Source: Cyanobacteria bacterium P01_D01_bin.156 (lineage in GTDB: Bacteria > Cyanobacteriota > Cyanobacteriia > Phormidesmidales > Phormidesmidaceae). From it: a stretch of DNA of 11,311 nt. The position numbers and the translations under genes were made by a program. Each line of letters starts with the position of its first letter. Within the stretch, counting starts at the first letter, position 1. Below, one piece after another: positions 141-10,420 of this stretch. The notes below the pieces were generated by a model. It did no database searches. It was not told the origin of the DNA and saw only the letters and a program-made list of their open reading frames with translations. The stretch is taken from the NCBI GenBank assembly GCA_039024555.1, contig JBCCQQ010000107.1, positions 1-11,311 of the forward strand. Direction: 5' to 3'.

Positions 141-349
141 TTGAATTATTCAATTTTGCACTTATGACCAATCTTGAGGTGAAAGAATATATATTAAAAC
201 TCTCACCCAGAATGATAAAGCTTTTTGAGCTTTGGGATAAGTCTGATATAGGAGCATTTAATCTGACTACTGTTGGAGTTGCAATAGCTCAAGCTAACTT
301 TCGACGACGTACTGGTTTAAAGTTTGATCTATCACTTTGGGTCAATTAA
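141..349 (+). pseudogene. C-terminal remnant of a gene cut by the putative IS, resembling the LPO_1073/Vpar_1526 family C-terminus
   Basis: ORF 164-349 ends ...LFELWDKSDIGAFNLTTVGVAIAQANFRRRTGLKFDLSLWVN, matching my recollection of the LTSVGIAIxHAN...DLSIWIN ending of that family. The frame stays open upstream (ELFNFAL from 143) to the putative IS end. AT-rich. Confidence 0.45.
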
Positions 350-509
350 GCCTTATATAAGGACTTTAAGGAACACTTTCACATGGGGCAGCTAAGCTTG
401 TTTACACCCTGCCAGTCTCTACGATTTCCTTACAGGCTTCTCACCCGAATTCATTAAACCCGATAAAACCAAACAATCTCGTAGAGCCACAAGCCAACTG
501 AGCTTATTC

Positions 510-727
510 CTAGACTTTGTAACCCCTTGGCGTAATCATACGACCCTGATGCAAAAACGTTCGGGAATTGCCGATAAGCACCACGGTGAGCATATCAATG
601 GTGGTCACACCCACCTCCTCCAACGTGAGACAGCGGACTGACTCTCCTGAACGGTAGAGAGAACGCGCGATCCACAATCGGAGTCTCAGCCAAACAATGC
701 CGCTGCATAATCTCCAAAGCAGTCTCA
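510..727 (-). pseudogene. cobJ 3'-end copy A (218 bp, about the last 71 codons, 1-nt insertion near 673)
   Basis: Aligns with 2100-2316. 510-672 vs 2100-2262 has 13 mismatches in 163 nt (11 synonymous). 674-727 vs 2263-2316 has 12 mismatches in 54 nt (ETALEIMQRHCLAETPIV vs EIALEILRRHRLGKTPVA). Confidence 0.95.
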
Positions 728-955
728 TGCCGCACTTACCGAGGCCACTAGACGATGTTCGCGATCAGCTGCGAATTCCAGACAAGCCCTGATATCAGTT
801 TCTACTAACTCTGGAAAGTCATCAATAATTTCATCCGTAGACATACCTGCGGCTAGCCAGCCTAAAACATCGTAGACTGTAATCCGCATCCGCCGGATGC
901 AAGGTTTTCCACTCCGTTTATCTGGTTCGATAGTGATGATACTGCGATAGCTCAT
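725..955 (-). CDS. DUF433 (COG2442) family putative antitoxin, VapB45-like, 76 aa
   Basis: Characteristic ITIEPDKRSGKPCIRRMRITVYDVLGWLAAGMS-DEIIDDFPEL-DIRACLEFAA pattern. ATG start, typical length. Confidence 0.92.
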   Translation of the reverse strand: MSYRSIITIEPDKRSGKPCIRRMRITVYDVLGWLAAGMSTDEIIDDFPELVETDIRACLEFAADREHRLVASVSAA

Positions 956-1067
956 AGTGTATGTGTGTCCAGCATTTTATACCTGCATAAGTTTAAAGCA
1001 GGCTAATACCTTGCTGCAACGGACGGGCGTAGGAGCACTCCCTTGTGTAAACCAGCCGAGCTTACGC

Positions 1068-1173
1068 CTAGACTTTGTAACCCCTGGGCGTAATCATGCG
1101 ACCCTGATGCAAAAACGTGCGCGAATTGCCGATCAGCACCACGGTGAGCATATCGATAGTCGTCACATCCACC
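1068..1173 (-). pseudogene. cobJ 3'-end copy B (106 bp, VDVTTIDMLTVVLIGNSRTFLHQGRMITPRGYKV*)
   Basis: Aligns with 2100-2205 with 7 mismatches in 106 nt (6 synonymous, 1 K/R). No start codon within the copied segment. Confidence 0.95.
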
Positions 1174-1333
1174 CATAGAATCGCGCACTGGGCATGACTG
1201 AGGCTACTGATGTAGGCTTTAGTCATGGCTCGCACAGGGCTAGAGGATGCGTGTAACGTTTAGCCTATACCGTTTGAGCTTTTTTACCCATTGAAACCCT
1301 TTTCATACAGTCTCTAACTACGGAGAGTAACCC

Positions 1334-1612
1334 ATGCAAATAACCCTCGAACTTCCTGATGATCTGGTTCAACATTTGAGCCCTAACCAGATGGCTCGTG
1401 AAATTGTCGAAGCACTAGCTGTACACGCCTATCAAACTGAAAAAATTACTCATGCTCAAGTAGGGAGTGTCTTAGGGTTACCTTCGCGTTGGGCAGTAGA
1501 TAGCTTTCTCAAGGAAAACAATGCTAATTTACATTACGATGAAGCGGATTTAGAGTGCGATCGTGAAACCCTCCGTCAATTGCGCATTCAACATTCGAAG
1601 AGTACCTCATGA
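1334..1612 (+). CDS. UPF0175 (COG2886) family putative antitoxin, 92 aa
   Basis: MQITLELPD N-terminus and ALAVHAYQTEKITHAQVGSVLGLPSRWAVDSFLKE...YDEADLECD pattern. GGAG at 1322-1325. ATGA overlap with the downstream PIN gene. Confidence 0.88.
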   Translation: MQITLELPDDLVQHLSPNQMAREIVEALAVHAYQTEKITHAQVGSVLGLPSRWAVDSFLKENNANLHYDEADLECDRETLRQLRIQHSKSTS

Positions 1613-2073
1613 TCGTTGTTGCTGACACTTCACCGATTAACTACTTGCTGCTAATCGACCAGATTGATCTACTCCATCACTTATTTCGAGAGATTATCAT
1701 TCCCGATGCGGTACGAGATGAAATGATTGATCCCGGTGCCCCCGTTGTTCTTCAGCAATGGATTGATAACTCTCCTGATTGGATTAAATTACAAGCCGTA
1801 TCTGTCACAGATAAGAGTTTGAGTACCCTCGATCCAGGAGAGCAAGCTGCCATTACGCTAGCTCAAACCCTACCAGCAGATCTGCTCATCATTGATGAAA
1901 GGTTGGGAAGGCGTGCTGCAAGTAGTTTAGGAGTTCCTATTATTGGTACTCTGGGAATATTAAATGATGCTGCAAATCAAGGGTTGATAAATCTTGCAGA
2001 GGCCATTGACCGTTTGCAAAAAACGAATTTCCGCGTCTCTCGTCGTATTATTCAAACATTGTTAGAAAGTTAA
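1609..2073 (+). CDS. DUF3368 (COG2405) PIN-domain putative toxin, 154 aa
   Basis: MIVVADTSPINYL, IPDAVRDE, LDPGEQAAI, LLIIDERLGRR, IIGTLGIL and NFRVS motifs. The PIN acidic residues look intact. Confidence 0.92.
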   Translation: MIVVADTSPINYLLLIDQIDLLHHLFREIIIPDAVRDEMIDPGAPVVLQQWIDNSPDWIKLQAVSVTDKSLSTLDPGEQAAITLAQTLPADLLIIDERLGRRAASSLGVPIIGTLGILNDAANQGLINLAEAIDRLQKTNFRVSRRIIQTLLES

Positions 2074-2099
2074 GAGCGGTCTCTTCCAAGCCGACAATT

Positions 2100-3971
2100 C
2101 TAGACTCTGTAACCCCTAGGCGTAATCATGCGACCCTGATGCAAAAACGTGCGCGAATTGCCAATAAGCACCACGGTAAGCATATCGATGGTGGTCACAT
2201 CCACCTCCTCCAACGTGAGACAGCGGACTGATTCACCTGAACGATAGAGAGAACGTGCGATCGCAACCGGCGTCTTCCCCAAACGATGCCGCCGCAAAAT
2301 CTCCAGCGCAATCTCAATCCCCCGAGTACGAGTCTTCGAACGCGGATTATACAACGCCACCACAAAATCTCCCTGAGCCGCCGCCGCCAAACGCTTCTCA
2401 ATCACCTCCCACGGCACCAACAAATCCGACAGAGAAATCGCACAAAAATCATGCATCAATGGGGCACCCACCCGGGCCGCCACCGCCTGCAGTGCCGTAA
2501 TCCCCGGAAACGCAGAAACACCCGGTGTCTGACCATCCCAGCCCCGCTGCACCAGGCATTCCATCACCAGTCCCCCCATACCATAAATGCCACAGTCGCC
2601 GGAGGACACCATACCCACAGTTAACCCCCGTTGTGCCAGGGCCACAGCTCGCTCCGCCCGCTGGACTTCCTGAGTGATTTTGCTAGTCTCAATCACCTGG
2701 TTGGGATGAAACAGAGGCCGCAACAAATCTAGATAGAGGCCATAGCCAATGACAACATCACAGTCCAGGAGGGCCGCACGAGCAGCAGCGGTGAGCTGGC
2801 CTAGATCACCAGGTCCCGACCCAATCAGATACAAGTGGCCGGGTCGGGGATTATATTCCTGAGCAGCGCGGGCAACAGCAATGGTGCAGGCTCCGTCACC
2901 CTTAAAAACTTGTTTCGTAATCACTAGTGCCTGACTTTGGGATGCCAGCAGCGCAGCGGCTTCTGCGACGGACGGTGTGCCCACAGCCTGAGCAACAACA
3001 TCGGATGGGTTAGGCACCGATGGCTCGGCTAGTTGGGCCGCGCTAAAAAATCGAAGCGGCCATTGGTACTGCTCTGCCAACGCTTGAAAAGCAACTTCAT
3101 CCTGCTTGAGGTCAATGGAGGCGATACCAGCGATGGATTGCCAGGCCAGGTTTTGATCCCGTAACACCTGCTGAATACTGGCCTCAATTAACTCTGTTGA
3201 TGTCCCCCGTTCACAGCCCAACCCAACCCACAGCGTACGAGGATGCCAGCACACCTCTGGGGTCTGCTCTTCTGAATTTTGAGTAGGAGGTAGCTGATCT
3301 GAAATCCACAGTCGCGCAGAGCCCTCTAGGTCCGAGGCTGCAGGGGCTTGATCTACAAAACAAAAAGGAGACTCTTCACGCAACATTTGTCGCCACAAAG
3401 ACTCACCACAGGTCTGGTGAACCGAGATTGGCTGTCGCTGCGCCAGAGCAGACGCCACCGCCGTCCAATTGCCCTCTCCCCGTTGCCACCCGTAGGGCTT
3501 TCCCAACAGATCCAAAGCTGGTAGCTGTTGCCCTTCAGAGGCTGACATAACCACCGGTTCCGCTCCCAATAGGGCCGCACATTGTCGAGTTAGGGCATCG
3601 GCTCCCCCCTGGTGTCCTCCACTCACGCTAACGACAAACTTGCCCATATCATCAATGGCCACCACCCCTGGGTCCTGGTGTTTGTTGTTAAGTAACGGTG
3701 CAATCAACCGCACCACCGCCCCCACTGGCAAGAAAAATATTAGCTGTGTCGCTCGGCCCCAGCATTCTGACACCACAGAAGCGACAGACCCATCGTATTT
3801 ATAGATATCAAGGCTGACCGAGGTATCTATTAGAGTATCTTCCCTGGTCCATAATTCTAAAGGTTGTAGACTATCCCAGAGTTGCAGACTTTGCTGACAG
3901 CCCGCCAGGGTGGGAGCAATCATCAAAATCTTAGAGTCAGGCTTTGCAAAAGACTTAGAAGCAATAGTCAT
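2100..3971 (-). CDS. cobJ: CbiG-CobJ/CbiH fusion: cobalt-precorrin-5A hydrolase plus precorrin-3B C17-methyltransferase
   Basis: CbiG motifs (GAVVRLIAPLL-KHQDPGVV, SGGHQGGAD, GLGCERG, VGTPSVAEAAAL), then CbiH motifs (GSGPG, VSSGDCGIYGM, PGITA, GAPLMHDFCAISLSD, ALYNPRS, MITPRGY). ATG at 3971 preferred over the ORF-track start at 3983. Confidence 0.95.
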   Translation of the reverse strand: MTIASKSFAKPDSKILMIAPTLAGCQQSLQLWDSLQPLELWTREDTLIDTSVSLDIYKYDGSVASVVSECWGRATQLIFFLPVGAVVRLIAPLLNNKHQDPGVVAIDDMGKFVVSVSGGHQGGADALTRQCAALLGAEPVVMSASEGQQLPALDLLGKPYGWQRGEGNWTAVASALAQRQPISVHQTCGESLWRQMLREESPFCFVDQAPAASDLEGSARLWISDQLPPTQNSEEQTPEVCWHPRTLWVGLGCERGTSTELIEASIQQVLRDQNLAWQSIAGIASIDLKQDEVAFQALAEQYQWPLRFFSAAQLAEPSVPNPSDVVAQAVGTPSVAEAAALLASQSQALVITKQVFKGDGACTIAVARAAQEYNPRPGHLYLIGSGPGDLGQLTAAARAALLDCDVVIGYGLYLDLLRPLFHPNQVIETSKITQEVQRAERAVALAQRGLTVGMVSSGDCGIYGMGGLVMECLVQRGWDGQTPGVSAFPGITALQAVAARVGAPLMHDFCAISLSDLLVPWEVIEKRLAAAAQGDFVVALYNPRSKTRTRGIEIALEILRRHRLGKTPVAIARSLYRSGESVRCLTLEEVDVTTIDMLTVVLIGNSRTFLHQGRMITPRGYRV

Positions 3972-4698
3972 GGCGGCGCACAATCAAAATAGAAAAATAA
4001 GGGGGGTTATAGTCGGCCAGATTCACCAGGCTGGAATATTGTTTCTCCTCTAGTGAACCCACTCGCTCCACCAAACTGGCCAGTTCTAGAAGTCCTTTTT
4101 CTTTTAGTGTGTGCCATACCTGACCGAACACGGATGACACCTTCATCAAGACAACAACATCGGCCCACTCCAAGGCATGGGTGAGTTCAGACACGTCATA
4201 CAGAGCAGGCAGGATAGCAATTTTCTCTGATCCTAAAGACAGAGGCCGATTGAGGGCCGCCATCGCTGCTAAGGGAGAACACACTCCAGGTACAGTGGTA
4301 ATTTTTATAGCAGGGGCCAAACGATGCACTGCCTGGGCTACATAGCTAAAAGTGCTGTATAGACTGGCATCCCCCTCCGTGATAAACGCCACATTCTGCC
4401 CCTGGGCCAACAGAGGCACCAGTGTTTCTCCCGCTGCCGCCCAGGCCTGCTGTAGCTGCACCGGATCGCGCACAAAGGGCAGATCCAAGGGCAAGATCGT
4501 TTGCTCAGGCCGTAAATGAGATTTGACAATACTATAGGCCATACCAGGCTCTCCCTGTCTATTCTGGGGACAGGCCACCACATCGACGGTTTGTAAAATT
4601 CGCAGCCCTTTTAGGGTGAGCAATTCACTATCTCCAGGACCGACGCTAATTCCCCATAACCGCCCCCGATCATGTATCAGTAACTCACTGGATGCCAT
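3955..4698 (-). CDS. cobI: Precorrin-2 / cobalt-factor II C20-methyltransferase (CobI/CbiL)
   Basis: GISVGPGDSELLTLKG, FITEGDASLYSTFSY, VPGVCS, VVLMKV and PYFS motifs. ATG at 4698 is preceded by AAGGAG. Confidence 0.93.
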   Translation of the reverse strand: MASSELLIHDRGRLWGISVGPGDSELLTLKGLRILQTVDVVACPQNRQGEPGMAYSIVKSHLRPEQTILPLDLPFVRDPVQLQQAWAAAGETLVPLLAQGQNVAFITEGDASLYSTFSYVAQAVHRLAPAIKITTVPGVCSPLAAMAALNRPLSLGSEKIAILPALYDVSELTHALEWADVVVLMKVSSVFGQVWHTLKEKGLLELASLVERVGSLEEKQYSSLVNLADYNPPYFSILIVRRHDYCF

Positions 4699-5965
4699 GG
4701 CCTTCTCCTTGAGCTGCAACAGGTTGAGAGGCCTGTAACAAAATCACAGGGTTTAAGGGAACAAAACGGGTGGCCCCTGCCAAGGTGGCGGAGCGGGAGA
4801 TATTGACCTGCAATAGCTTTACATCCCAGCCGTTATCTTGTAGCTGTTGCTTGGCCAGCATACAGGTTTCGAGGGTGGCAAAGTTGGCGACAATGACTCC
4901 ATTGGGTTGGATGCGATCGCAACACACCTCTAAAATCTCTGGCATCGCCTTACCACCTCCACCAATCACGATCCGATCGGGGTATGGCAAAGACTCAAGC
5001 GCCGCTGGAGCAACACCTCGGAGAGGTGAAATGTGAGCCGTATCAAAGCGACGACAGTTTTTTTCGAGCAGGGTGAGCCCCGCTGCAGTTTTCTCAATGG
5101 CATAGATACGGGCATCGGGGACCAGACGTGCAATCTCGATAGAAATGGAGCCGGTTCCAGCTCCCACATCCCACACTGTAATCTTTGGCCGTAATCTCAG
5201 CAGGGACAGGGATAATGCCCGCACTTCTTGCTTTGTAATTAAACCAGGCTGATCGGGAAAGGTGTGAAAGTCTTGATCAGCAATGCCAAAGAAGGGCTGG
5301 GGCATCTGTGGGCTTAGACTCTGTGCTTCTAGCACGACAACATTCGGGCTGGGGAACGAATGGGTTATGGCCTCTTCTATGGCAATTGCCTGGATAGTCT
5401 CCTCAGCGGCTCCCAGATGGCTACATACGGTCATACGGTACTGGACGGGTGGGCGGACATCTCGAATCAATCGAGCAATCTCTCCAGGTGTATGGACAAA
5501 ATCAGTTAGAACTGCCAAGGGAGACTTTCCTTGTTTAAGGGCTTGCTCTAGGTGAGCGGGCTGGCGACCGTGGACACTGATGATGGTGGCTGACTGCCAG
5601 GGAATTCCCAGACGGTTAAAGGTCAGCTGGACAGAACTGACATGGGGATAAAACCGAAGACATTGGCGATCGAAGTGTTCGGTTAGTAAGCGACCCAGAC
5701 CAAAAAAAAGTGGATCTCCACTAGCCAGGACCACCATCGATTTCTGTTGCAGAATATCCGCAATTTGCTCAATCCAAGCAACAATATCGCCCTCTAGGGG
5801 CAATGGGCGAGCTGGATAAATAGCTACAGTTCGTAAATGGGCTTTGCTGCCTGCAATGACTTCAGCTTTTTCTAAACAAGCTAAAGCATCAGGGGTGAGA
5901 CTCTGGAGTCCGTTTAACCCTAACCCAATGACGTGCAATAGGTTTTTAGGACAAGATTGCTTCAC
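4685..5965 (-). CDS. cbiE: Bifunctional CbiE-CbiT (CobL-like) C5/C15-methyltransferase (decarboxylating)
   Basis: VIGLG, VVLASGDPLFFGLG and SVHGR (CbiE). LITKQEVR, WDVGAGTGSISIE and PDRIVIGG (CbiT). GTG start. Confidence 0.93.
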   Translation of the reverse strand: MKQSCPKNLLHVIGLGLNGLQSLTPDALACLEKAEVIAGSKAHLRTVAIYPARPLPLEGDIVAWIEQIADILQQKSMVVLASGDPLFFGLGRLLTEHFDRQCLRFYPHVSSVQLTFNRLGIPWQSATIISVHGRQPAHLEQALKQGKSPLAVLTDFVHTPGEIARLIRDVRPPVQYRMTVCSHLGAAEETIQAIAIEEAITHSFPSPNVVVLEAQSLSPQMPQPFFGIADQDFHTFPDQPGLITKQEVRALSLSLLRLRPKITVWDVGAGTGSISIEIARLVPDARIYAIEKTAAGLTLLEKNCRRFDTAHISPLRGVAPAALESLPYPDRIVIGGGGKAMPEILEVCCDRIQPNGVIVANFATLETCMLAKQQLQDNGWDVKLLQVNISRSATLAGATRFVPLNPVILLQASQPVAAQGEGHGIQ

Positions 5966-6019
5966 GCCTGAGAGCTGTTAAACAAAATAGGATGCATACG
6001 AAGGACTTTTATACGCTCT

Positions 6020-6979
6020 TTAGGGTACCTGCCAAGCCCGCTCATGGTAATTCTTCTCTTTAGGATAGAGGTCGGGAATGCCGTGATATAACGTTTGGCC
6101 TTCAGGATGTTCATGGTTATGCCCATGTTCGTGATTGTGGTCGTGATGGTGCCCGTGATGGCCATGGCCATGGGCGCTGACCGCCTGGCGAAACTTACAG
6201 GTGTAGCAGTTCATGGAGACTTGACCAGCTTGGGCTTCTTGCTCGCGATCGCGAATTAACTCAAACAAAATCGGATCAGCACCAATCACGGATAGGCTCT
6301 GCATCTCTATGTCAGGATGAGCTGCCTGCTCGTGCTCAATAATAGTTTGAATCCGCTTCGCTAGCACCCCAGTAAACAGCAGGTGAGGAATCACAATAAT
6401 CCGCTCTGGATTCCATGCCCGCGCGCGCTCAAAACCTCGTTCCATACGCGGGTGAGTAATACCGGTAAAACACACCTCTAGATCCTGGTATCCACTGCCT
6501 TCCCACAGCATCCGCGCCAGCTTATACACATCGCCATTGGCATCTGGGTCTGACGCACCTCGCCCCACAAACACCAGTACCGTTTTCTCACGAGGCACTT
6601 TACTCTCTTTGTCTGCCTGCTCCAAACGCTTTTGCCACAGCTCCAACCATCGTAATGACACGCCAAAATGGCGACCATAGTTTAGCTTGAGCTGGGGATG
6701 ACGTTGGACAGCTCGGTCTAGCTCATTGGTGACATCAAACTTACTATGGCGGGCCGCAAACAGTAGCACCGGTAGCACCGTGAGTTCGTGATAGCCCTGC
6801 TCAACACAGCTATCGATACCTGCCTGAATCAAGGGATCCGTCAGCTCTAAAAAGCAAGGTACTACTGGGCGGCTAGCATCATAAGTCTGAAACTGATGGG
6901 CAAAATCAAGAAATGCCTGACGCCCATTCGCATCACGAGTGCCATGGCCCAAAAGTAAAAGAGGGTGAGATTGACTCAT
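6020..6979 (-). CDS. cbiX: Sirohydrochlorin cobaltochelatase, long-form CbiX with His-rich tail
   Basis: [28 protein letters not shown] and [13 protein letters not shown] motifs, MNCYTCKFR Cys motif and His-rich C-terminus. ATG at 6979 ([10 protein letters not shown]) preferred over 7069. Confidence 0.92.
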
Positions 6980-7318
6980 GTCGTTATCGAGGCCCCTGGG
7001 CAATCCAGAGAGATAGATGTCAGTGGTTAACGTTAACACTTGTCGGCATCGAAGAAATAAGGAATCCACTATTTATTAAGGAGGCTTACTTTACACATTT
7101 TTTTATGTTTTGGAAACCTGTAAACTCTCATGGTCTGCCAGCATCAAATATCTTGTAGAGAAGTGCCATGTTAAGAAAATGGGCATTGCTGATCCCCGAG
7201 ATGACTTCAGCTGTGAGATACCGTCAAATAACAATGGTTCTAGATCGATTCAGCCCCTAAATCAGCAATCGCAAAAAATGTTATTTAACTAAAGGCCCTT
7301 TCCGAATAGTTTTACAGA

Positions 7319-8740
7319 ATGCCGATTCCCACACTTGTCATTGCTGGAACCCACAGTGGTGTGGGCAAAACGTCCATCGCCATTGGGTTAATGCGGGCGT
7401 TTACTAATCAGGGACTACAAGTACAGCCCTTTAAGGTGGGACCTGACTTTATTGACCCCAGCCACCATCGACAGGCAACGGGGCGGGTGTCTCATAATTT
7501 GGATGGATGGATGCTGAATCAGGCTCAAAATTGTCAAATTTTTGATCAAGCCTGTGAAGGGGCCGATCTGGCCATCGTTGAGGGGGTCATGGGCCTGTTT
7601 GACGGGTACGGCGCGGCATCTGAGGCGGGGAGTACGGCTGAAATGGCCAAGTGGCTGGGGGCATCAGTGCTGCTTGTGATTAATGCTCGCTCCTTGGCCC
7701 GCAGTGCGGCCGCCTTAATTGCCGGCTATAGCAACTTTGATTCAGATCTGACGGTGGCGGGGGTGATTTGCAACCAAATTGGCAGTGCGTCACACCTGGA
7801 GCGCATTTGTTCAGCGGTGAGACACACTGTCCGGGTACCTATTTTGGGCGGTATCCCTCGCACTGAACCGGTGAAAATCCCTGAACGTCATCTAGGACTC
7901 TGGCGAGCGGCGGAATTAACTGAGCTCGGCTATTTGGACACTCTGGCTCGACTGGTCACTGACAATCTGGATTTGCAAGCCTTAATAAACATTGCAAAAT
8001 CTAGATCACCCCGAGCGGTCGCCACGACTGAGCCAGATCGGAAAACAAATCGCCAAAAATGCTTGCCACCCTCCCCTAAAGTTCGCATTGGTATTGCTCA
8101 GGATCAGGCATTTTGTTTTTACTATGCCGTTAACCTAACCCTGTTAGAACAATTCGGTGCAGAACTCATTCCATTTTCTCCTTTAGAGGATACCTTACCT
8201 GAAAAATTAGACGGTCTCTATATTGGTGGGGGTTACCCTGAACTCCATGCAGAACAACTGGTCAAGAATCAGGAAATGCGGGATGCGATCGCACACTTCT
8301 GTCAAGCAGGACGTCCGGTTTATGCAGAATGTGGCGGCCTCATGTATCTTTCCCAGGGACTGCTAGAAAACGAGACCTATCCCTTTGTCGGCATTCTCCC
8401 CTTTTGGACAAAAATGGGAAACCGCGTCAAGCTCGGCTATCGTCAAGTAGACATGGTAGGCCCTTACAACGGCTTCCCAAACCAGGGAAAAATTCGCGGT
8501 CATCGGTTTCATTATTCAGATATTGTCGATGCTGAAGGCAATCTTCTAAAGATTGTCCCACCTTTCCCTGAGCATACCCAAAAAGAACAACTACAGTTCA
8601 ACTATCAATTGCAAGGCTGGAACAACTATCAAAGCTGGGAAGGATATCAGATTTACAACGTTCTAGCCAGCTACGTCCATCTACACTTTGGCAGTAATCC
8701 CACCTTTGCCCAAAGGTTTGTTCAGTACTGCAGATCTTAA
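7319..8740 (+). CDS. cobB: Cobyrinate a,c-diamide synthase (CbiA/CobB)
   Basis: GTHSGVGKT P-loop, PFKVGPDFIDP, VEGVMGLFDG, IPERHLGL, AFCFYY, GGGYPE, YAECGGLMYL and SYVHLHF motifs. Confidence 0.96.
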   Translation: MPIPTLVIAGTHSGVGKTSIAIGLMRAFTNQGLQVQPFKVGPDFIDPSHHRQATGRVSHNLDGWMLNQAQNCQIFDQACEGADLAIVEGVMGLFDGYGAASEAGSTAEMAKWLGASVLLVINARSLARSAAALIAGYSNFDSDLTVAGVICNQIGSASHLERICSAVRHTVRVPILGGIPRTEPVKIPERHLGLWRAAELTELGYLDTLARLVTDNLDLQALINIAKSRSPRAVATTEPDRKTNRQKCLPPSPKVRIGIAQDQAFCFYYAVNLTLLEQFGAELIPFSPLEDTLPEKLDGLYIGGGYPELHAEQLVKNQEMRDAIAHFCQAGRPVYAECGGLMYLSQGLLENETYPFVGILPFWTKMGNRVKLGYRQVDMVGPYNGFPNQGKIRGHRFHYSDIVDAEGNLLKIVPPFPEHTQKEQLQFNYQLQGWNNYQSWEGYQIYNVLASYVHLHFGSNPTFAQRFVQYCRS

Positions 8741-8797
8741 TCTCTATAACCACGGTTCTCGCTCCTAAGATCACCAATGTCAATCCCGTCGAGTAAA

Positions 8798-8842
8798 CAA
8801 AAAGAAAGCATGGTTGCTGCTTTGACTCAAAACAGCAACCAT
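8798..8842 (-). terminator. Intrinsic terminator downstream of cobW
   Basis: Minus strand reads ATGGTTGCTG-T-TTTG-agt-CAAA-G-CAGCAACCAT followed by GCTTTCTTTTTG. The stem's single mismatch is a U.G wobble only on the minus strand. Lies between the convergent cobB and cobW. Confidence 0.75.
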
Positions 8843-8878
8843 AGTTCCATCGCTATAAAACTTGTCCACTGACAAGAC

Positions 8879-9919
8879 CTATGCCGCCGCTGCCATCGTC
8901 TGGGCAATAGTCTCTTTATCTAGATGAGAGCCAATCACCACCAACCGGGTCTGACGAGCTTCATCCACTTGCCAGGCACGATCATAAAAGTGATCGAATC
9001 GTTGCCCTACCCCCTGCAAAACCAGGCGCATCCTTTTATTCGGCACAGATACAAAACCTTTTATTCGGTAAATTTCTTGCTGTTGTACCAACGATTGTAA
9101 ACGTTTCACCAGAACAGATGGCTCAAACATCTCGTCTAATTCAATATAAACTGACTCTAGATGATCGTCATGCTCGTGTTCTTCTTCATGATCATGATGA
9201 CTATGACGACTATCCAGATCATCTTCAACCGCTGCATTAAAGCCCAGCAAAATATCTGGATTAATTTCACCTTGATGACAGGGAACAACCTTAACGCCGG
9301 TAGGAGCTTCCTGCTGCAGCCATTGCTGCACCCGCTGACTACTCTCTTTTGAGAGCATATCGGTCTTAGTCAGCAATACCATATCGGCACAGGCTAACTG
9401 ATCCTCAAACAGCTCCTCAATCGGAGTCTCATGATCCAACGAATCATCGGCCTGTCTTTGAGCTTCTAGCGCTTCTAAATCACCAACAATCTGACCATGC
9501 GATAGGGCTTCACCATCTACCACGGTCACCACACCATCCACGGTCGCTCCTGTGCGAATTTCAGGCCAACGAAATGCTTGCACCAGTGGCTTTGGTAAAG
9601 CTAACCCTGATGTTTCAATGACAATACAATCAATGTCTTCCCTGCGCTTTAGCAGCGTTTGCATAGTGGGTAAAAACTCTTCTTGAACGGTGCAGCACAG
9701 ACAGCCATTAGCTAACTCTAGAATGTTGGTGCCAGGAGTCTCGTCCTCATCGCAGACTTGACAAGATTTAAGGATTTCACCATCAATACCAACTTCGCCA
9801 AACTCATTGACTAGCACAGCAATACGTCGTCCCTGATTGTTTTGCAACAGATGACGAACCAACGTAGTTTTGCCCGAGCCTAGAAACCCGGTAACTACGG
9901 TAACAGGAATTTTATGCAT
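8879..9919 (-). CDS. cobW: Cobalamin biosynthesis metallochaperone GTPase CobW (COG0523)
   Basis: GFLGSGKTT, VNEFGEVGIDG, ELANGCLCC (CxCC), IETSGLALPKPL, His-rich HSHHDHEEEHEHDDH and YRIKG motifs. RBS GAGGA just upstream. Confidence 0.96.
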   Translation of the reverse strand: MHKIPVTVVTGFLGSGKTTLVRHLLQNNQGRRIAVLVNEFGEVGIDGEILKSCQVCDEDETPGTNILELANGCLCCTVQEEFLPTMQTLLKRREDIDCIVIETSGLALPKPLVQAFRWPEIRTGATVDGVVTVVDGEALSHGQIVGDLEALEAQRQADDSLDHETPIEELFEDQLACADMVLLTKTDMLSKESSQRVQQWLQQEAPTGVKVVPCHQGEINPDILLGFNAAVEDDLDSRHSHHDHEEEHEHDDHLESVYIELDEMFEPSVLVKRLQSLVQQQEIYRIKGFVSVPNKRMRLVLQGVGQRFDHFYDRAWQVDEARQTRLVVIGSHLDKETIAQTMAAAA

Positions 9920-10266: not shown

Positions 10267-10420
10267 CTGTACCTCGCAGATCAGTGAAACAGCAGGTTAA
10301 TCATCGGCGGGCATTCTGACTTAGAGGCATCACACCTCATTCACAGCTGCGGGACAGCGGCAGACTTGCACTGCACTTTCCCCGTTTCCTCCAGCGGCTG
10401 CTTTCCGCAAGAACCGATGA
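10265..10420 (-). promoter_or_regulatory. Cobalamin (B12) riboswitch: aptamer 10420-10301 plus RBS hairpin 10281-10265
   Basis: Minus strand: TCATCGGTTC...GGAAACGGGGAAAG...GTGCAAGTC...CGCTGTCCCGCAGCTGTGA...AGTCAGAATGCCCGCCGATGA, with the B12 box and a TCATCGG/CCGATGA P1 stem. Downstream hairpin ATCTG-CGAGGTA-CAGAT overlaps the ATG at 10266. Confidence 0.95.

Follow-up and report, generated by a model that had tools for sequence, protein, structure and literature searches.

The two orphan 3' ends of cobJ that lie behind the working gene appear to have served once as working gene ends and to have been stranded as DNA from relatives recombined in out of register behind cobJ; we give this reading a probability of roughly 0.6. 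The window, by which we mean the whole stretch of 11,311 nucleotides analysed, carries on its minus strand a cob cluster whose last gene is a cbiG-cobJ fusion, with the two 3'-end copies (tails A and B) downstream of it. Read along cobJ, the order is cobJ, cassette B, tail B, 19 nt of duplicated flank, cassette A, tail A, flank and a repeat. The features are given below, with G denoting genomes (G000 is that of the window), L loci (L043 to L046 from metagenomes) and X sequencing runs.

2100 to 3983, minus strand: working cbiG-cobJ fusion gene, 627 aa, with CbiG_N, CbiG_mid, CbiG_C and TP_methylase matches; its 3' end anchors the array
2257 to 2264, unstranded: the sole HIP1 octamer in the last 400 nt of cobJ, at position -165 in 6/6 working ends examined
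1174 to 2099, unstranded: cassette B, convergent on cobJ; copies 94% identical in L044 and L046
1980 to 2004, unstranded: putative crossover inside cassette B in the X1 strain, from the window allele to an L044-type allele
1609 to 2073, plus strand: DUF3368 gene, predicted PIN-type toxin (family match)
1334 to 1612, plus strand: UPF0175 gene, predicted antitoxin (family match)
1068 to 1173, minus strand: tail B, the last 106 nt of cobJ; its 5' boundary is shared with the tail behind cassette B in L046
1049 to 1067, minus strand: 19 nt of post-stop flank, duplicated along with tail B (counterpart at 491 to 509)
728 to 1048, minus strand: cassette A, trimmed; longer copies (91-96%) in G014, L043 and L045
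725 to 955, minus strand: DUF433 gene, predicted antitoxin (family match), its toxin partner gone
718 to 728, minus strand: first codons of a truncated DUF5615 toxin gene, joined to cobJ sequence at a 9/10-nt microhomology
674 to 717, minus strand: putative older 5' layer of tail A, decayed; a 1-nt insertion at 674 coincides with the HIP1 position
510 to 673, minus strand: putative fresh 3' layer of tail A (1 private residue among 50 scored)
364 to 509, minus strand: ancestral flank, found directly after cobJ in G015 and G016 and after the last tail in G007, G012, L043 and L045

The UPF0175 gene presumably encodes the antitoxin and the DUF3368 gene the PIN-type toxin of cassette B, and we take the pairings of UPF0175 with DUF3368 and of DUF433 with DUF5615, and likewise PemK, to be toxin-antitoxin systems. 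As predicted from the families, the two-gene operon of UPF0175 and DUF3368 has a type II architecture, as have DUF433 with DUF5615 and PemK in the relatives; there, the long form of cassette A (G014, L043, L045) carries DUF433, a truncated DUF5615 and a PemK pair. The contigs listed for run X1 reproduce window positions 400-1096 with 0 differences and span both the joint at 718 and the inserted nucleotide at 674, which makes an assembly artefact unlikely, with the proviso that X1 is possibly the source sample and its agreement with the window not surely independent.

Several other elements were noted in the window. An identical 135-140-nt repeat is shared between positions 1-140 and the ends of eight other contigs; it is probably the end of an insertion sequence and the cause of the contig break. 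Positions 141-363, between the repeat and the ancestral flank, are low in GC and hold a 61-aa ORF (164-349) with no Pfam match. An imperfect inverted repeat, seen by eye at 1192-1226 upstream of the UPF0175 gene, is possibly an operator or terminator. Judged by eye, the leader upstream of cobW (10290-10400) resembles a cobalamin riboswitch. The cobM and cbiJ genes of G000 are on another contig, C89.

Divergence of the tails

The sequence-only reading had described both tails as formerly functional alleles, on the strength of hand counts that our recount reproduces. Tail A (510-672) differs from the cobJ end (2100-2262) at 13 of 163 nt, with 11 synonymous codons beside one D/G and one R/K replacement; tail B (1068-1173) differs from it at 7 of 106 nt (6 synonymous), and A from B at 9 of 106 nt, of which 8 are synonymous. 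The Pro codon does take a different form in all three copies (CCT, CCA, CCC). As the consensus residue is K, it is the working copy that changed in the R/K replacement.

With pN/pS values of 0.04-0.08 across the three pairs, the dN/dS check proposed earlier gives a result far from 1. Neutral decay is ruled out by the comparison of A with B (binomial p=0.0003, both copies taken as neutral), and the corresponding values are 0.005 for A-cobJ and 0.035 for B-cobJ; a transition bias of 4 was used throughout, and the nulls of the latter two pairs let the working copy change only synonymously. The pS among the window copies (0.24-0.31) lies in the range of that among working cobJ ends of different genomes (0.22-0.34).

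Forcing the three window copies into a clade private to this genome, the outcome named beforehand as fatal to separate origins, is rejected over the 95 alignment columns (p-AU 0.0006). The pairs cobJ+B (0.0014) and A+B (0.013) are rejected as well, while cobJ+A is not (0.22). Taken together, pN/pS, the tree test and the matching pS support the view that the tails are ends that diverged in the working cobJ of different lineages. The tree itself (21 ends, 95 columns of recombining sequence) is mostly unresolved, with 2 of 17 inner branches starred; a partial L046 tail (50 nt) and L045, a near-copy of L043, were omitted from it. The further expectation, that each tail should group with the strains that share its cargo, is borne out only weakly. 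Tail B does pair with the L043 end that precedes the DUF433 cassette (2/95 mismatches, support 90/73), and is just as close to G012_1 and L044_0 (2/95 each). The working end falls elsewhere, the carriers of cassette B not being its nearest relatives (L046 5/95, L044 7/95, against 3/95 for a G012 orphan).

Tail A is longer than first noted, since its homology to cobJ extends to position 717 once the 1-nt insertion at 674 is allowed for. At 718 the DUF5615 gene breaks off; its continuation is preserved in G014 and appears, intact, as loose ends at this position in runs X1, X5 and X6. The distance to the nearest allele is 8/42 in the 5' part of the tail and 8/150 in the 3' part (p=0.009), and private residues, scored against 11 working alleles, number 4/14 and 1/50, respectively (p=0.007). 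These values are suggestive of a tail that is not one frozen allele but an older, decayed 5' part joined to a fresh 3' part. As the G012 working copy has 3 private residues in the region of the 5' layer, this region varies among working alleles, so that the contrast is suggestive and not conclusive, and some of the apparent decay may represent an unsampled allele.

Arrays in relatives and routes of spread

A cobJ end was matched in 11 of the 22 genomes of the genus, and 4 of these 11 contain orphan tails: two in G000, one in G007, three in G012 and one in G014, where the full cobJ gene is not assembled. No cobJ was found in the other 11 genomes, four of which are at least 98% complete. In other genera of the family the cobJ end is present in 93 of 99 genomes and a clear orphan tail in none, in a search that short tails of distant genomes could escape; two long-frame matches, on different contigs, occur in G069, and one short-frame match in G114. 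Empty sites exist in G015 and G016, where cobJ runs directly into the flank that follows tail A. All four metagenome loci found (L043 and L045 being near-copies) have the cassette and tail structure.

The arrays of the relatives consist of one to three cassette and tail units and have the features of a 3'-end displacement array: an intact gene is followed by same-strand 3' fragments of variable length, the fragments of one genome are not most closely related to one another, and the last one joins the ancestral flank. Measured from the end of cobJ, the tails begin at -106, -163, -167, about -208, about -230, -241 and -374. The cargo belongs mostly to toxin-antitoxin families (three distinct UPF0175/DUF3368 alleles, DUF433/DUF5615, a PemK pair, a weak DUF2283 match), and one G012 cassette has no family assignment. 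At L035:4250-4340 in G012, a direct fusion with the end of a convergent DUF3368 gene, which itself has an internal stop, has given the working cobJ a new C-terminus. Beyond the last tail, L035, L040 and L043 contain genes for AIPR, EAD8-trypsin with a NACHT protein, a caspase and an MvdD-type ATP-grasp protein; in G012 and G014 these accessory genes precede cobM, forming a wider variable region that is possibly defence-rich.

Individual cassettes keep their tail boundary from genome to genome: cassette B has it at -106 in both the window and L046, the long cassette A (DUF433/PemK) at -241 in G014, L043 and L045, and a third cassette at -163 in G012 and L044. Judged by eye, loose ends in X5 (29/30 nt) match the end of the G007 cassette at -374, and those in X10 (28/30 nt) the end of the G012 cassette at -163. 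What follows a unit does change. The -163 unit runs into the ancestral flank in G012, but in L044 cassette B comes next, and the -241 tails of G014 and L043, which differ at 1/95 nt, have different last codons and flanks. Such changing neighbours behind a fixed unit are as predicted if the right-hand crossover falls within the tail. Between tail B and the L046 tail there are 3 synonymous differences within 50 nt, starting 13 nt from the shared boundary, which requires crossovers near the boundary or later conversion.

We propose that the arrays would have formed in three steps. In the first, presumably rare, a donor cobJ end with its cassette would anchor by homology in cobJ, and the far end of the donor DNA would fuse illegitimately into the resident cobJ, creating the first cassette and tail unit. 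In the second, for which part of the evidence is direct, the unit would spread by ordinary homologous recombination, with the left crossover in the body of cobJ and the right crossover in any shared sequence, be it a tail or a shared cassette. Where the right crossover joins an orphan tail of the donor to the working end of the recipient, a cassette would be added beside cobJ and the recipient's end demoted; the resulting orphan would combine the donor's boundary and old 5' part with a fresh 3' part. In the third step, microhomology deletions, often at HIP1, would trim cassettes and tails; here the junctions are observed and the process is conjectural. Natural transformation is the likely route of entry; comEC and dprA are present in G000, but comEC was not found in G007 and G015 (86% and 97% complete). 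The tails probably serve as landing homology and nothing else, and addiction through the predicted toxin-antitoxin pairs may slow the loss of units by tail-to-tail excision.

Homologous exchange at this position can be followed in run X1. Over window positions 1144-2078 (935 nt), its contig has 8 differences from the window, and the 6 of them that are listed, at 2004-2035, all correspond to the L044 allele, which differs from the window at exactly 8 sites in 2004-2078. The junction letters of X1 are those of L044, and the L044 difference at 1979 is absent from the X1 differences listed. Hence, the homologous tract has its limit between 1980 and 2004, some 100 nt into cassette B, and the X1 strain is window-like up to about 2003 and from there carries the allele of the other lineage as far as the cobJ stop. 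The tract is contained in one assembled contig, and which of the strains is the recombinant rests on parsimony; as read from this contig, it proves homologous exchange, but not the addition of a cassette.

The end of the tract inside cassette B bears on an alternative route, modelled by Jackson et al. for rhs genes, in which recombination between tails excises a circle of cassette and tail that integrates elsewhere by one crossover at a cobJ end. Such circles would yield the same architecture, the cassette-linked boundaries and the two-layer tails, and could coexist with linear exchange. A linear double crossover can produce the X1 tract, but a single crossover of a circle cannot, as an exchange in the tail leaves the first ~95 nt of the next cassette unaltered. 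In addition, no circle-type joint was identified in the contigs of 6 runs, which show presence only. We therefore consider circles an unlikely main route.

The ongoing allele exchange at this spot in X1 would also agree with old local duplicates having been overwritten repeatedly, through gene conversion, by cobJ alleles of relatives, so that the tail sequences were functional elsewhere but never formed the working end of this chromosome. The purely synonymous differences between tail B and the L046 tail, which share one boundary, point in the same direction. Overwriting leaves unexplained, however, the new cassette orders (L044 compared with G012) and the growth to three units, and gene conversion would be expected to work poorly on 100-160 nt enclosed by non-homologous flanks; we regard overwriting as improbable. 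It is more doubtful still that each cassette arrived in a separate homology-facilitated illegitimate event and that units do not travel. The many boundaries, some with microhomology, would fit such events, which the available excerpts of PMC5361080 propose for arrays of type VI secretion effectors, but the same cassette keeps an identical boundary across genomes and contexts, and the illegitimate route is given there as orders of magnitude rarer than homologous recombination.

Site-specific integration, in which an integrase recombines an attP site carrying a replacement gene end as in the case of e14 and icd, has very little in its favour here. The icd and icdC genes do show the same silent signature, and G000 has 7 PF00589 tyrosine-recombinase matches, but all of these are on other contigs, a scan of ORFs in the cassettes and around them detected no recombinase family (a contig break limits the window), and at least 7 boundaries, from -106 to -374, are in use. 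With respect to integron features, the spacers are cobJ coding sequence and one candidate motif occurs only twice in G000; a small shared repeat driving the junctions was rejected, window positions 141-2100 having no match elsewhere in G000. Finally, local duplication with neutral decay, or retention of the tails as selected short peptides, is practically untenable: tail A does lie in a 72-codon open frame starting at the toxin ATG and tail B in a 55-codon frame, but the binomial test and the rejected private clade speak against the former, and starts, lengths and frames are not conserved among the tails, several of which have indels.

Recombination between relatives, as in the preferred reading, also seems to involve the surrounding genes. 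At fourfold sites, the divergence of the cob genes from G007, G015 and G016 is 0.33, 0.33 and 0.35, compared with 0.62, 0.62 and 0.61 for control genes (p<1e-21; 4-5 genes, namely ctaB, ylqD, dprA and rpoB, plus comEC where found), and G012 is intermediate (cob 0.49, controls 0.61). The G012 cobJ is closer to that of the window at its 3' end (21/69) than at its 5' end (59/112; p=0.004), a gradient that is significant in this one of 9 relatives. From these values we infer that the cob cluster (window 2100-9919) moves between species of the genus, and B12 synthesis has likely been lost and then regained horizontally within it. Transfer of the cluster would imply donors close enough for recombination, which may explain why arrays are limited to one clade.

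HIP1 octamers and other duplicated gene ends

Of nine distinct tail boundaries, seven known from assemblies and two only from run contigs (X5 at 2366 and the X10 joint at 672-718), three fall on HIP1: G012_1, G012_3/L044 and the X10 joint. By a rough hand estimate, made post hoc, the probability of this is about 0.002. Two further tails have lesions at HIP1, namely the insertion in tail A and an 11-nt deletion in G012_2. G014 retains the untrimmed form of G012_1, and this reveals a HIP1-to-HIP1 deletion, so HIP1 may act in later trimming and not in capture.

According to excerpts of the literature, deletions and recombination at HIP1 have been reported, and HIP1 in homology arms raises the transformation efficiency of PCC 7002 (PMC4390886, PMC13756078, bioRxiv 10.1101/2024.09.10.611283); a 352-bp deletion at HIP1 is also on record (PMC13756078). 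The cases reported in these excerpts are laboratory or single-deletion ones, whereas here natural junctions of cassette and tail fall on HIP1 and offer material for the long-open question of its function. A broader proposal, which we put forward tentatively and consider rather unlikely as a whole, is that a cassette with a 100-370-nt end of a housekeeping gene constitutes a self-propagating, recombinase-free unit that stacks out of register behind a B12 gene, rides a B12 cluster exchanged across species and uses HIP1 as its natural joint. If so, HIP1 would have a recognisable part in natural gene capture.

Two more clear cases of duplicated gene ends in G000 emerged when 4,494 and 5,391 ORFs were scanned, together with two-copy direct repeats (17 pairs). 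At G000:C91:148-3058 (L051), a ctaB-like UbiA gene is followed by nucleotidyltransferase and HepT genes, Uma2 and a 149-nt copy of its own 3' end, with 7 of 12 changed codons silent; this tail begins exactly at the only HIP1 of ctaB. In a mirror case at G000:C67:19886-21330 (L052), about 265 nt comprising the upstream region and start of ylqD are duplicated upstream, with 7 of 8 codon changes silent and an 81-aa ORF between the copies. The ctaB and ylqD duplicates were found in G000 only (1 of 18 and 1 of 20 genomes with a match), hence neither gene is a shared hotspot in the genomes searched, and the flanks of both duplicates have no match in relatives. Duplicated 3' ends of 564 and 127 nt also occur behind apparently plasmid-like genes at G000:C117:2820-5696 and C120:1982-5711, and G004 has two full-length ctaB 3' matches on different contigs (C392 and C185).

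Comparison with known systems

A scar of this general kind is already known; the value of the locus lies in the evidence on mechanism and in the link to HIP1. The empty sites, the shuffled arrays and the near-clonal recombinant illustrate how a genome can gain genes repeatedly behind a housekeeping gene with neither integrase nor transposase, and the locus suggests exchange of the B12 cluster between species of the genus. Integrase-free gain has so far been modelled mainly for toxin loci. Our literature search, with supplements outside its scope, found no account of this locus or of tail duplication at cyanobacterial housekeeping genes.

The minimal mobile elements of Neisseria, in which regions are exchanged between conserved flanks (excerpts of PMC3787668), resemble the cobJ locus in having variable genes beside conserved ones, moved by homologous recombination in the flanks. 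A variable region of this type lies between cobJ and cobM in G012, G014 and G008. Duplicated gene ends, as found here, are not mentioned for these elements in the excerpts.

Displacement of C-terminal ends has been described for rhs genes (Jackson et al. 2009, PMC2935791). As far as excerpts of that work go, strings of displaced 3' fragments, varying in length, trail an intact gene in both systems, and in both, incoming ends push the incumbent downstream, exchange is restricted to close relatives and the model needs no dedicated recombinase. At cobJ, however, the array is anchored in the gene of a housekeeping B12 enzyme, incoming and resident ends code for one and the same protein, what varies is a separate convergent cassette instead of a toxin tip, and the X1 tract favours linear double crossovers over the circles of the rhs model. 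In the Vibrio effector-immunity arrays of type VI secretion, which grow by sequential displacement (Kirchberger et al. 2017, PMC5361080, excerpts), units are likewise added at the front by a proposed homology-facilitated illegitimate recombination and then shuffled by homologous recombination, and the copies of one genome do not cluster together. In contrast, the cobJ locus has neither a secretion system nor immunity genes and retains a useless gene end of the same function. Assignment to the orphan arrays of Rhs, CDI or type VI polymorphic toxins was rejected, as the anchor is CbiG-CobJ and the tails encode the same C-terminus.

A similar divergence pattern is seen where the e14 prophage sits in icd, with icdC as the pseudogene. 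Between icd and icdC we counted 12 mismatches in 165 nt, with 9 of 11 changed codons synonymous; PMC3636060 contains nothing on icdC. In both cases the replacement 3' end keeps the housekeeping gene intact and the orphan differs mainly at synonymous sites. The two differ in that e14 has intE and xisE and one fixed crossover, whereas cobJ has no integrase, its boundaries vary and its cargo measures 0.3-1.3 kb.
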